From Promethearchaeota archaeon (GTDB taxonomy: Archaea; Asgardarchaeota; Lokiarchaeia; Sigyniarchaeales; SOKP01): a stretch of DNA of 64,000 nt. The stretch is taken from NCBI GenBank assembly GCA_016840085.1, contig JAEOTA010000078.1:1-64000 (forward strand), written 5' to 3'. Position numbers and translations under genes: made by a program. The notes under the pieces were generated by a model that was not told where the DNA came from, did no database searches, and saw only the letters and a list, made by a program, of their open reading frames with translations. This document shows, piece by piece, positions 5,639 to 63,558 of the stretch (the stretch's first letter is position 1; the number at the start of each line of letters is the position of its first letter).

Positions 5639-6602
5639 AATCGCGATGATATTGATATGGGTTCTTTTATCGTTTATTTTCGCCCTTTTTTATGAGTGGT
5701 TTGATAGGAAGGTATATGCACATTTTCAAAATAGAGTAGGACCTCAAATGGCTGGTTACAAAGGAATATTGCAACCTTTAGCAGACTTCATTAAATTATT
5801 AAAGAAGGAGAGCATATTTCCAAAAGGAAGTAATACTTTTTTGATAACCTTCTCTGCAATATCATCAGTTGCACTGATGTTTTTTATGTTACTTTTTATT
5901 CCCCTTTATAATTTAAATGCACCACTTTCGCTTAGTGGAGATTTAATTTTATTATTCGGAATTGGTGTGCTCATAGATCTTTTAATTATAATAACTGGTT
6001 ATTCCGTTGCGTGTCCATATTCAAATGAAGGTGCAGCAAGAAAGGCAGAAATGATAATTTCCTTCGAAATTCCCTTCGGGATCTCAATTGCAACCATTAT
6101 TGCTATATCTAAATCCATTACTATAAAAGACAGCTTGCTATTTCAATCATTGGGTATTCCTCTTATAATATTCATGCCTTTAAGTTTTATTGCATATATC
6201 TTTAGCAGCATAGCAAAGCTAGAAAAAGTCCCATTTGATGCTCCAAATGCGGAGTCAGAAATCGTAGCAGGATGGTCAACAGAAATCAGTGGGAGAACAT
6301 TAGCCTTATTCAGACTTTCTTTCGATCTTGATATGTTTTTTGTGGCTTCTTTTGGAGCTATCCTTTTCTTAGGTGGTCCAGCATTACCTTATTTTAATTA
6401 TCCCGGGTTATTATTTCTTAATCAGACTTTAAACTTTGTAATGTTCTTTATAAAAACATCATTAATTGTCTTTTTAATAACGATGATAAGAAGCATTACT
6501 GCAAGATATCGAATTGACCAAGTAATTAACTATTTCTGGAAAGTTATTATTCCTTTAGCAATGTTAAATTTAATTATAATCATTATATTTGGTTTGGGGT
6601 GA
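5628..6602 (+). CDS. nuoH: Complex I-like subunit H (NuoH/MbhM-like)
   Basis: DRKVYAHFQNRVGP, QPLADFIKLLKKE, PFDAPNAESEIVAG, RYRIDQ. Confidence 0.92.
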   Translation: MMIKIAMILIWVLLSFIFALFYEWFDRKVYAHFQNRVGPQMAGYKGILQPLADFIKLLKKESIFPKGSNTFLITFSAISSVALMFFMLLFIPLYNLNAPLSLSGDLILLFGIGVLIDLLIIITGYSVACPYSNEGAARKAEMIISFEIPFGISIATIIAISKSITIKDSLLFQSLGIPLIIFMPLSFIAYIFSSIAKLEKVPFDAPNAESEIVAGWSTEISGRTLALFRLSFDLDMFFVASFGAILFLGGPALPYFNYPGLLFLNQTLNFVMFFIKTSLIVFLITMIRSITARYRIDQVINYFWKVIIPLAMLNLIIIIIFGLG

Positions 6603-6608
6603 TTCAAT

Positions 6609-6863
6609 ATTAACGGTAATATTATTTATCTTTTGTTATTTATCTTAATAATAATAGTTACATTAGTAATCTATTTTGTAGAGAATTTAATGTATGCTGT
6701 TATTTTTTTTACAGTATTTAATATATTAATTGGAGTATTTTACATTTTTTTGGGCTATACTCTTTTGGGCATATTTCAGATAACATTATACTCTGTTTCG
6801 ATGGCAACTCTATTTTTTTATATAGTATGTTTAATCGGAGGGGAAAATGATAAAGAAGAGTAA
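6609..6863 (+). CDS. NuoJ N-terminal-like / MbhD-like small membrane subunit (possible ATT start at 6609, otherwise TTG 6633)
   Basis: Hydrophobic, LGIFQITLYS motif, lies between nuoH and nuoK; SD GGGGTGA 6 nt before the ATT. Confidence 0.65.
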   Translation: MNGNIIYLLLFILIIIVTLVIYFVENLMYAVIFFTVFNILIGVFYIFLGYTLLGIFQITLYSVSMATLFFYIVCLIGGENDKEE

Positions 6864-7122
6864 ATTATTGTCATTTCTACTATTGTTATTAATAGTGACA
6901 ATAAGTATTTTTTATGCTATTGAATTTGAGAATATTCAGAGCAATTATGTAGAAAATGCAGGTGAAATTTTAATACGTGAGAATGATAAAGCTTTTAATA
7001 CAGTTATAGGTAAATTTATTTGGGAATATAGAGGGTTCGAGATGATCATAATAGCCTTTATTTTACTTAGTGTCTATGCGGGTATTTCAGCACAAATTAG
7101 GAAGTCCAATACAAGGAGTTGA
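6847..7122 (+). CDS. NuoJ C-terminal-like / MbhE-like small membrane subunit
   Basis: IWEYRGFE motif between two TM helices; overlaps neighbouring genes. Confidence 0.7.
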   Translation: MIKKSKLLSFLLLLLIVTISIFYAIEFENIQSNYVENAGEILIRENDKAFNTVIGKFIWEYRGFEMIIIAFILLSVYAGISAQIRKSNTRS

Positions 7123-60935: not shown

Positions 60936-62225
60936 TTACAGTAAAGTTTGAGCGAATAATTTAATTTTTTCACGTATAATTTTTTCTGATGTAAATCGAG
61001 CATCACCAACATCTAAATCAACTAATAACATAGGAATTCCAACCTCCTCTCTTAAGGCTTCGCGTAAAATTTGAGGAACACTCCCAAATTGTTTACATCC
61101 TATATGAGAAGTGAAAATAAAACAATCTGCTGAAAAATCTTTTGCTAATTGAACACAATTTTCTATAAAAGGATAATAAAATTCAGCACTTTGTTTGGTC
61201 ATTGGAGCTTCCATTGCTTTTTTCGCCATTCCATAAAATAAAGTCTCTAAATCTGATTTAGTATTAATAGGATCTGCAAAATTGTAATTGAAAATATCAA
61301 ATAGGATCGACATGCCAAGAGAACGATCTAACCACTCACATAGACCTAAGTCAAAAAAAACAATCATATAAGGCCAAATACTTCGTATTCTTTCTTCTCC
61401 AGCATGATGCTCTTTCTTTTTATATCTGTTCTTTGCTATTTCTACCATACTTTTATAGAACTCAAGTTTTTCTTCTCGGCCAGCCAAATATATTTGAGCT
61501 GCTGCAGACATAACATTAAACATATTCTCTACAGGGCATGGATTTGCTTTCTTCAATTCAAATATTTCTAATTGAAGATTAGTTGATTGATTTTCTAATT
61601 CTAAAACTCTCCTTAATTTTTGATAGTCAGGTTCTTGGTTAATTATATTTCCTATTTTTTCTAATCCCAATCTAATTTGCTCAGCATGATAATGATAACT
61701 TTTTTCTGCTTTAAGAAACGGCAAATCTGGAGCTATTAAAGGAATTTTTTTATGATATTTGAAAAAAGGGTAAGAAGCATATGTGTTATCGCATGGGGCA
61801 GTTGGAGTGATAATGGCATCAAATTTAAACAAATCATCAAGGGTCATTCCCATTGTGCCTTTTTGAGAAGTGCAAGTATGAAAAGGATGACCCCAATGAG
61901 TTATCAAATCATAATATGGCTCAGAACCATTTGGTAATAATGCAGCTAATAAATATGACGTTGCTTCAATACAAACGGGTACACAATCAAAACAATACAA
62001 ATATTCTGTTGGAAATGAGAAATGATGGCCAATAATAGGTAATCCCTCTCCAGATTTCTTAATAAAATCTTCAATAACTGATTTAATAGATCCTAACCCT
62101 AAGTTTAAAGAGGGTATTCCATGTTCTGGGAGGATTCCATCAACCAATCCACGAGTATAAGATATTGCTTCGTATAGCATTTTATATGGGATAATTCGAT
62201 TTTCCATTTCAATTCTATTAACCAT
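60936..62225 (-). CDS. 2-hydroxyacyl-CoA dehydratase family subunit (HgdA/FldB/BcrB-like)
   Basis: HTCTSQK, APCD, GCKQ, LDVGDAR. Confidence 0.85.
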   Translation of the reverse strand: MVNRIEMENRIIPYKMLYEAISYTRGLVDGILPEHGIPSLNLGLGSIKSVIEDFIKKSGEGLPIIGHHFSFPTEYLYCFDCVPVCIEATSYLLAALLPNGSEPYYDLITHWGHPFHTCTSQKGTMGMTLDDLFKFDAIITPTAPCDNTYASYPFFKYHKKIPLIAPDLPFLKAEKSYHYHAEQIRLGLEKIGNIINQEPDYQKLRRVLELENQSTNLQLEIFELKKANPCPVENMFNVMSAAAQIYLAGREEKLEFYKSMVEIAKNRYKKKEHHAGEERIRSIWPYMIVFFDLGLCEWLDRSLGMSILFDIFNYNFADPINTKSDLETLFYGMAKKAMEAPMTKQSAEFYYPFIENCVQLAKDFSADCFIFTSHIGCKQFGSVPQILREALREEVGIPMLLVDLDVGDARFTSEKIIREKIKLFAQTLL

Positions 62226-62251
62226 ATTTCTGTTCCAGTTTCATATTATTT

Positions 62252-63541
62252 TTAAATTAATGTTTGTACAAACATACTAATTTTTTCTTTAAATGTCTTT
62301 AAAGAAGTCATTCTCGCATCTCCAGCATCAAATTCAATTAATAACATCGGAATTCCAACTTCATCTCTTAATGCTTCTCTTAGGAGTTGAGGAACAGAAC
62401 CAAATTGTTTACAGGCAATACTTTGAGTGTATATAAAACAGTCTGCAGAAAAATCCTTAGCAAAATTCACACAATAATCAATAAAAGGTTCAAAAAATTC
62501 AGTAGATTGCTTTACCATAGAGAAATCCATCCCTTTTTTACTCATACCTAAGAACATAGTATCTAAATCAGAGTTAGTATCAATAGGATCTGCAAAATTA
62601 TAATTAAATATATCAAATAAAACGCTAAGACCTAAATTTCTATCCAACCATTCCATTAAATCAATGGAGAACCATGTTATCATGTAAGGCCAAATTGATC
62701 TTACTCGTTCTTCTCCTCCATAATGCTCATTATTTTTATACCGGGTTTTGGTTATTTCTAACATTTCTTTATGAAAGGCTAGATTTTCAGGAGTACCTCC
62801 GATAAATATGTAGGATCCTGCTGAAGAAGGATTGTACATATTTTCAACGGGACTTGGTGTAGCTTTAATCAACTCAAAAATCTCGAATTTTATTCTATTA
62901 ACTTGATTTTCAAGTTCTATTGCTTCTTTTAGTTTTTTAAAATCTGGTTCTTGACCAATTATTTTACCGAGATGTGATAATCCTAATTTAAGCTGATCAG
63001 CATAATAATAATAGCTTTTTTCTTGGTGCAGAAAAGGTAGATCAACCATAATAAGAGGATAATTTTCTTTATATTTGAAAAAAGGATACGATGCAATAGT
63101 ACAATCACAAGGAGCCGTAGGGCTGATTAAAGCATCAAATTTAAACAAATCATCCAAAGACATTCCCATCGCTCCTTTTTGCGATGTGCAAGTATGAAAT
63201 GGATGACCCCAATTATTCATGAGATCATAATAATATTCTGATCCACCTGCTAAAAATGTCGCCAAGAAATACGAGGTAGCTTCTAGACACACAGGAACAC
63301 AATCGAAACACAAAAGATATTCAACGGGGAAAGAAAAATGATATCCAACAATAGGAAGCCCTTCTTCTGCTTTTTCAATATATCGAGTTAAAACGGATTC
63401 AACTTTATTGAGAACAATTCTTAATGAAGGAACCCCATTTTCTGGTAGAATTCTTTCTATTAATTCTCGAGTTGTAGATGTAGCTTTCAATAACATTCTA
63501 TAAGGGATAATTCGATTGAGATTTTCACTCTTGTTAACTAT
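62252..63541 (-). CDS. 2-hydroxyacyl-CoA dehydratase family subunit, tandem paralog; probable ATA start at 63541
   Basis: Same motifs; N-terminus IVNKSENLNRIIPYRML aligns with paralog MVNRIEMENRIIPYKML. Confidence 0.85.
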   Translation of the reverse strand: MVNKSENLNRIIPYRMLLKATSTTRELIERILPENGVPSLRIVLNKVESVLTRYIEKAEEGLPIVGYHFSFPVEYLLCFDCVPVCLEATSYFLATFLAGGSEYYYDLMNNWGHPFHTCTSQKGAMGMSLDDLFKFDALISPTAPCDCTIASYPFFKYKENYPLIMVDLPFLHQEKSYYYYADQLKLGLSHLGKIIGQEPDFKKLKEAIELENQVNRIKFEIFELIKATPSPVENMYNPSSAGSYIFIGGTPENLAFHKEMLEITKTRYKNNEHYGGEERVRSIWPYMITWFSIDLMEWLDRNLGLSVLFDIFNYNFADPIDTNSDLDTMFLGMSKKGMDFSMVKQSTEFFEPFIDYCVNFAKDFSADCFIYTQSIACKQFGSVPQLLREALRDEVGIPMLLIEFDAGDARMTSLKTFKEKISMFVQTLI

Positions 63542-63558
63542 ACTCTACCACCTTATTT

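Follow-up and report, generated by a model that had tools for sequence, protein, structure and literature searches.

A window of 64,000 nucleotides, positions 1 to 64,000 of contig JAEOTA010000078.1 (contig C75 below) from a Promethearchaeota archaeon of the Lokiarchaeia, contains about 58 genes, seven of which appear to begin at ATT or ATA behind a Shine-Dalgarno (SD) motif rather than at a canonical start (ATG, GTG, or TTG). The contig is part of a metagenome-assembled genome of 4.68 Mb and 29.5% GC, whose 16S rRNA 3' end carries a normal anti-SD (the tail contains CACCTCCT). The first-pass annotation, made from the window alone, had proposed all seven starts, and direct reading finds every codon and motif in its place:

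13537..14694, minus strand: M28 peptidase gene, 385 aa; ATT start at 14694, SD GGTGA at 14701-14705; Pfam PF04389
18310..19110, plus strand: short-chain dehydrogenase (SDR) gene, 266 aa; ATA start at 18310, SD AGGTG at 18298-18302
29437..29970, minus strand: CobO/BtuR adenosyltransferase gene, 177 aa; ATT start at 29970, SD GAGGT at 29979-29983
50816..51253, plus strand: MNT nucleotidyltransferase, antitoxin partner of the next gene; ATG start; Pfam Polbeta/NTP_transf_2
51249..51692, plus strand: HepT-like toxin gene, 147 aa; ATT start at 51249, SD GGAGG at 51235-51239
62252..63541, minus strand: 2-hydroxyacyl-CoA dehydratase subunit (HGD-D, here HGD) gene, 429 aa; ATA start at 63541, SD AGGTGG at 63548-63553
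6609..6863, plus strand: NuoJ-like membrane subunit gene, 84 aa; ATT start at 6609, SD GGTGA at 6598-6602; Pfam Oxidored_q3 below cut-off
45576..47582, plus strand: RACo (reductive activator of corrinoid proteins) gene, 668 aa; ATA start at 45576, SD GAGGTG at 45563-45568; posterior 0.77 in the start-codon model described below

Seven probable near-cognate starts in one window

Five of these genes (M28, SDR, CobO, HepT, and HGD) form a strict set: as originally claimed, none has an in-frame canonical codon between the upstream stop and the ATT or ATA. Their first canonical codons lie 14, 40, 28, 61, and 15 codons downstream of 14694, 18310, 29970, 51249, and 63541, respectively. The remaining two sites do fit less strictly, with a TTG 8 codons downstream of 6609 and another 26 codons upstream of 45576. 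The expectation that gene callers would truncate such proteins is borne out, since the five strict proteins are on record in exactly these shortened forms, without their first 14-61 residues; the parts lost include a P-loop and a nucleotide-binding strand. A start at the first ATG would cost the SDR positions 1-28 of adh_short; the first canonical codon of CobO lies beyond the P-loop, and a start there would remove Pfam positions 1-23; the HepT would lose Pfam positions 4-51.

Alignment of the amino termini with homologs, which the annotation had suggested as a check, shows at all seven positions ATG, TTG, or another ATH codon (ATA, ATT, or ATC) in relatives. At the M28 start, GGTG followed by interchanging ATA, ATT, or ATC occurs in about 17 of 29 relatives, and most others have ATG without that SD. 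For CobO, the SD with ATT recurs in three other genomes, and ATG without the SD core is found in 14. Orthologs of the SDR have ATG (15/18) or TTG (3/18) at the same codon; HGD has ATG there in a neighbouring paralog and in the two closest orthologs (76-80%). For both SDR and HGD, the ATA is seen in this genome only. The sole NuoJ-like ortholog found has the same SD and an ATG at the codon, and five relatives of RACo have ATG (three), ATA (one), or ATC (one).

HepT is the weakest of the five strict cases. Its ATT overlaps the MNT stop, and both SD and ATT sit within the last MNT codons. Among 15 distinct loci, taken from metagenomes, the homologous codon is ATT in 11 and ATA, GTG, or GTT in one each; the remaining homolog is too distant. 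Eight also have an in-frame ATG four codons upstream, which follows the wobble base of an Asp/Glu codon in the overlapping MNT gene; some copies are broken, and in-frame stops occur in several homologs.

One study, perhaps itself the source, supplies contigs from four runs; these cover three of the seven sites and carry the same letters at 14694 (three runs), 18310 (three runs), and 29970 (two to three runs), although such contigs drop rare variants. Consensus error at these three sites is thus unsupported, there being no ATG in the assemblies of that study. Six of the genes have full-length frames and a pairwise ratio of nonsynonymous to synonymous substitution rates (dN/dS) of 0.02-0.29, a measure that very recent loss of function would escape.

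Frequency across the genome and among Asgard archaea

Two tests were applied genome-wide. The strict test is anchored on SD motifs: in-frame codons at SD distance are compared with out-of-frame counts and with control motifs. Open 5' frames contain 540 SD motifs, of which 351 have a canonical codon at SD distance and 189 do not. Behind these 189, four codons exceed their out-of-frame counts by a factor of three to six: ATT (54 versus 8.5); ATA (40 versus 9); ATC (16 versus 5); and CTG (9 versus 2.5). One of the four is present at 60% of the 189 motifs, versus 25-27% for control motifs, whereas ACG, AAG, and AGG remain at control level. Counted per gene (112/174 versus 93/241 for controls, p 2e-7), the excess corresponds to about 73 real cases, or 16% of SD-led genes and 2% of genes of at least 100 codons. 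This test is blind to imperfect SDs (aIF1 and eL21, below) and to genes with a stray upstream TTG, such as that at 45576.

The second test is a codon-blind model that leaves start frequencies free for all 61 codons and includes a non-coding background, a degenerate-SD class, and a non-SD class. It assigns 70% of 3777 genes to the degenerate-SD class, with the following starts: ATG, 1773 genes (66.7%); TTG, 365 (13.7%); ATT, 146 (5.5%); GTG, 98 (3.7%); ATA, 74 (2.8%); ATC, 41 (1.5%); CTG, 22 (0.8%); and every other codon at most 15 (at most 0.6%), with ACG, AAG, and AGG again not enriched. In the non-SD class, ATG accounts for 87.5%, and no ATH codon is within the top 14. Near-cognate starts by this model number about 280 genes (7.5%), almost all of them SD-led. 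(Unprompted, the model called the six window sites in genes of at least 100 codons at their exact coordinates, with posteriors of 0.72-0.92.)

Homologs point the same way. A homolog's canonical start falls within one codon of the site for 28/43 candidates versus 24/111 controls, and alignments reach into the amino-terminal extension for 33/37 versus 44/111. In a homolog test that ignores the SD, a near-cognate codon stands at the homolog's ATG in 7 of only 14 cases. A control genome of similar composition, Bacillus phage G (30% GC), yields 65 canonical and no near-cognate starts. Together with the strict test and the model, this suggests that most likely 2-7% of genes genome-wide would start at AUU, AUA, AUC, or CUG behind an SD. 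The proposal of ATA and ATT initiation is therefore upheld by orthologs, conservation, and genome-wide statistics, but the codon set is wider, with ATC and CTG added. The accompanying figure of about 10% of genes describes the window (7 of about 58) and overstates the genome, at 2% (strict) to 7.5% (model); the window count is compatible with 7.5% (P about 0.10-0.14) and incompatible with 2%. The sequence pattern, its conservation, and its SD dependence are established.

The spacing from SD to start peaks at 6-8 nt. The end of an upstream gene lies within 30 nt of 22% of near-cognate genes versus 46% of SD-led canonical genes, which excludes translational coupling as a general cause; HepT alone has the expected arrangement. 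A TATA signal was sought ahead of the SD-less ATG genes and none was found in this AT-rich DNA, so these genes are not called leaderless.

Near-cognate codons also stand at the head of genes for essential proteins. Ribosomal protein uL16 (contig C3) has ATC behind an SD, with the first canonical codon at frame position 114; eL21 has ATT behind an imperfect SD, with the first canonical codon at position 64; and Pop5 has ATA, with the first canonical codon at position 41. In all three that codon is deep within the Pfam domain, and, judged by their reading frames, these genes would need their near-cognate starts. Ribosomal protein uL1 has CTG, although a GTG within its SD may serve instead. Further candidates, recognised by eye, are presumably IleRS, TFB paralogs, a ubiquitin E2, a GPN GTPase, and MptA. 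(The window itself encodes, at 23781-24056 on the minus strand, a 92-aa protein with a weak, below-cut-off match to Ribosomal_L16/L10e, E 7.5e-6; the full uL16 is the one on C3.)

The trait extends beyond this lineage to other Asgard families. They were sampled as 200-kb stretches, on which the SD-anchored test is underpowered and the model is noisy (without convergence for genome G033). The size of that noise is shown by three contigs of the same genome, on which the model's share of AUH starts (AUA, AUU, or AUC) ranges from 1.3 to 10.8%. With this reservation, a second genome of the family comes out at 4.8% and two distant families at 5.7% and 3.2%; the remaining samples, among them those of the sister family (0.2-0.5%), have 0-2%. 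Within its own family the trait is strong; elsewhere in Asgard archaea it is patchy. One sample (G165:C13, L321-L330), from a distant family with TiaS and an ATG-started aIF1, contains what is presumably a proteasome alpha-like gene, named from its amino-terminal motif, which apparently starts at ATT behind a strong SD; several other genes in the sample apparently do the same.

The initiation machinery and the genetic code

Relaxed start selection had been offered as one explanation, with a search for changes in the fidelity loop of aIF1 as a check. The single-copy aIF1 (SUI1) gene (G000:C81:64195-64518; L031:1426-1740) encodes a protein 95% identical to that of Loki_b32 and 78-100% identical to those of other database relatives. 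By sequence, its zinc knuckle and its loop 1 (basic-aromatic-Gly-basic) align with aIF1 of M. jannaschii and Pyrococcus, and loop 1 matches the residues required by P. abyssi aIF1; the loop looks intact. Nor does inspection of the sequences reveal damage in aIF2 alpha, aIF2 beta, the uS9 tail, or the initiator tRNA. The genome has genes for aIF2 alpha, aIF2 beta, uS9, and aIF1A (two paralogs), all with ordinary starts, and its initiator tRNA gene is likewise of the usual kind (CAU, A1-U72, three G-C pairs). The aIF1A paralogs (G000:C60:57828-58034, plus strand, and C43:42630-42836, minus strand) both have long basic amino-terminal tails; the initiator tRNA gene (G000:C22:51652-51786, minus strand), situated about 1 kb from that for aIF2 beta, apparently has two introns.

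The aIF1 gene itself begins at a near-cognate codon: ATT at 64201, after which the first canonical codon lies deep within the SUI1 domain. In 77 distinct loci from relatives, the start site is ATT (74) or ATC (3) behind a conserved, imperfect SD, and no canonical codon precedes the zinc knuckle in any of them. The two codons preceding the start vary among these loci, stops included. Elsewhere in Asgard archaea, the aIF1 start is ATA, CTG, TTG, or GTG in many families and ATG in some. (An early reading of the locus, in which a GTG mini-frame ends on the aIF1 start, was dropped because the frame is not kept in the ATC variants.)

The genetic code is unchanged. In outgroup alignments internal ATA pairs with Ile at 42%, as do ATT at 44% and ATC at 46%, and ATG pairs with Met at 38%. 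Met is not among the five commonest partners of internal ATA, and recoding of AUA as Met is rejected.

Tolerated starts, dampened genes, or an altered tRNA

Ribosomes very probably initiate at these near-cognate codons, to judge from codon position, SD, and conservation together. How they might do so is suggested by a scheme that is probably right as a whole: the starts are true starts, tolerated when positioned by an SD, under a stringency set by aIF1. Pairing of the 16S tail with the SD would bring a codon 6-8 nt further downstream, AUU, AUA, AUC, or CUG (as well as UUG or GUG), into the P site, and the usual initiator Met-tRNA (CAU) would be accepted there despite one mismatch; genes without an SD would require AUG. 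Lax selection would let ATG drift to ATH in SD-led genes, those for ribosomal proteins included. The proofreader expected to reject AUU is aIF1: that of S. solfataricus discriminates against AUU in vitro (PMC4705826). Since its own gene starts at a conserved AUU, aIF1 synthesis should fall as stringency rises, a feedback of the infC or eIF1 type that would hold stringency at a permissive level. Such feedback by a start-selecting factor predicts a conserved AUU on aIF1, although the match is not proof, and the case for it is evenly balanced.

In E. coli, AUU, AUA, AUC, and CUG form a second tier at 1-2% of AUG (bioRxiv 10.1101/063800). Ribosomal proteins are needed in equal amounts, and we infer that either initiation is far more permissive here or the SD makes up strongly for the codon, as in S. 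aureus (10-30%, PMC13009471).

Several observations weigh against this explanation. The invariant AUU of aIF1 is evidence of selection for a weak start and not of feedback. The Ile codon ahead of the zinc knuckle is likewise ATT in most loci (70/77), so the preference for ATT over ATC at the start is weak evidence alone. Moreover, several Asgard families have an ATG-started aIF1, among them f24, whose sample has ATT starts elsewhere, and families f2 and f9 have weak aIF1 starts without measurable genome-wide excess; the aIF1 start thus does not predict the genome-wide rate across families. Finally, the model makes at least one false call in the window (ATA at 16829, where the ortholog starts at ATG), and the strict and model estimates, 2% and 7.5%, differ more than threefold.

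The other explanation first offered, dampening gene by gene, is unlikely. By this account stringency is ordinary, and each weak start is kept to lower the output of its protein, as in E. coli pcnB and S. aureus ccpN. It would suit a HepT toxin encoded behind its antitoxin, the family-wide ATH of the M28 gene, and aIF1, and in S. aureus such starts with a strong SD reach about 10% of AUG, up to 30% (PMC13009471), which might suffice for many genes. It does not suit stoichiometric proteins such as uL16, eL21, and the proteasome alpha-like protein of another Asgard family, nor the SDR and HGD orthologs, which have ATG with a similar SD and so resemble tolerated drift; and 70-280 genes are far more than the 2-4 known from a single bacterial genome. 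The use of such starts by uL16 and eL21, together with the free exchange of ATG and ATA between orthologs, makes relaxed selection the better reading than pure dampening, even though no lesion is seen in aIF1, aIF2 alpha or beta, or the initiator tRNA; the conspicuous feature is instead the conserved AUU at the head of aIF1 itself.

A change in tRNA is very improbable. On this account AUA, AUU, and AUC would be read either by an initiator tRNA whose wobble base is modified or by tRNA-Ile(UAU), acting as initiator in a lineage without TiaS. A tRNA-Ile(UAU) gene with two introns is indeed present (G000:C32, minus strand, about 27180-27368; missed by ARAGORN), the TiaS family has no match in this genome or in 10 family members, and third-position variants outnumber CUG by about 12:1 in the model. 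But the initiator tRNA gene is ordinary, and a wobble change explains neither the use of CUG nor the requirement for an SD. TiaS was found in 37/61 Asgard genomes and not in the sampled members of f1, f2, f5, f14, f15, f18, and f23. Its presence or absence does not track the start pattern across families, which rejects its loss as the cause: f11, f16, and f17 have TiaS and an aIF1 that starts at AUA; f2 and f5 have no TiaS match, and their samples show no AUH excess; and f24 has both TiaS and the excess.

Consensus errors or start loss in dying genes, the least probable source of the pattern and refuted as a general explanation, may apply to single genes (the ATA of SDR and of HGD is unique to this genome, the gene upstream of the SDR is frameshifted, and some HepT homologs are broken), but they do not account for agreement among assemblies, full-length frames at low dN/dS, essential single-copy genes, or ATT or ATC at 77 aIF1 loci, and start loss would yield ACG, AAG, and AGG too, independent of the SD.

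Tolerated, SD-positioned starts have precedents. Isolated cases are known in S. aureus (cvfC1, ccpN, and citZ; PMC13009471) and Deinococcus (dnaA and rpsL; PMC2830850). These, like E. coli pcnB, use the same codons and share the need for a good SD, and rpsL is a precedent for a ribosomal protein. They amount to 2-4 genes per genome, whereas here 70-280 genes are served by archaeal aIF1, aIF1A, and aIF2. Archaeal initiation at UUG and GUG shows that first-position mismatches are tolerated; TTG is common here too, and dominates in Aeropyrum pernix as cited in PMC2830850. Here, in contrast, third-position mismatches are used, and ATT is more frequent than GTG. A review of archaeal starts names AUG, GUG, and UUG and never AUA or AUU (PMC7531240). 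Literature searches, beyond whose reach most subscription papers lay, found no report of AUA or AUU starts in archaea. The kind of start is known from a few bacterial genes; its scale and its occurrence in the archaeal domain are apparently unreported. Mitochondria start at AUA, AUU, and AUC on leaderless mRNAs and read internal AUA as Met; here an SD is needed and internal ATA is Ile.

The closest parallel to aIF1 is bacterial infC: IF3 likewise proofreads start codons, and its own gene has a conserved near-cognate start of the sort it should reject. An AUU or AUA start with translational autoregulation is attributed to infC in PMC4705826 (citing Butler 1987); the same paper states that IF3 and eIF1 each restrain their own production by way of a weak start. 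IF3, however, is unrelated to the SUI1 fold of aIF1, the Asgard genome has this type of start at dozens to hundreds of further genes, and for aIF1 we infer the feedback. Eukaryotic eIF1 is orthologous to aIF1, and the proposed logic is the same; its autoregulation, through poor Kozak context (Ivanov 2010, as cited in PMC4705826 and PMC6237735), involves an AUG met by scanning, whereas aIF1 has a non-AUG codon placed by an SD. Tentatively, and with some doubt, a wider proposition may be put forward: Lokiarchaeia, and other Asgard archaea to varying degree, would use a two-tier initiation code, with AUG where no SD is present and about seven NUG and AUH codons efficient behind an SD in about 7% of genes. 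Its permissive level would be set by aIF1 feedback on its own AUU, giving a stringency-controlled regulon and an archaeal forerunner of eIF1 autoregulation.

Reviews treat aIF1 as excluding AUU. Asgard archaea stand close to the origin of eukaryotes, and dozens to hundreds of AUH and CUG starts in that group are relevant to dating the rise of strict AUG selection; an AUU-started aIF1 makes it testable whether autoregulation of the eIF1 type predates eukaryotes. More immediately, Asgard proteomes are misannotated (uL16 and aIF1 would lose half their length), and misannotated starts may also have led to an undercount of SDs in Lokiarchaea, where their use is reported to be rare.

Some minor features of the region may be recorded. 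The NuoJ-like gene lies within a membrane-bound hydrogenase or complex-I-like operon (5628-13549, plus strand), in which 11549-13546 is a fusion of 4Fe-4S, NuoB-like, and NuoD-like domains. Directly upstream of the SDR gene (16856-18141, plus strand), frames 16856-17236 and 17188-18141 form a frameshifted gene: they match end to end one 427-codon frame of a relative (87% and 85%), contigs of three runs have no gap there, and the product has no Pfam match. Just past the window, at about 65198 on the minus strand of C75, lies a further candidate with SD and ATT, 158 codons long, whose first canonical codon is 32 codons in.

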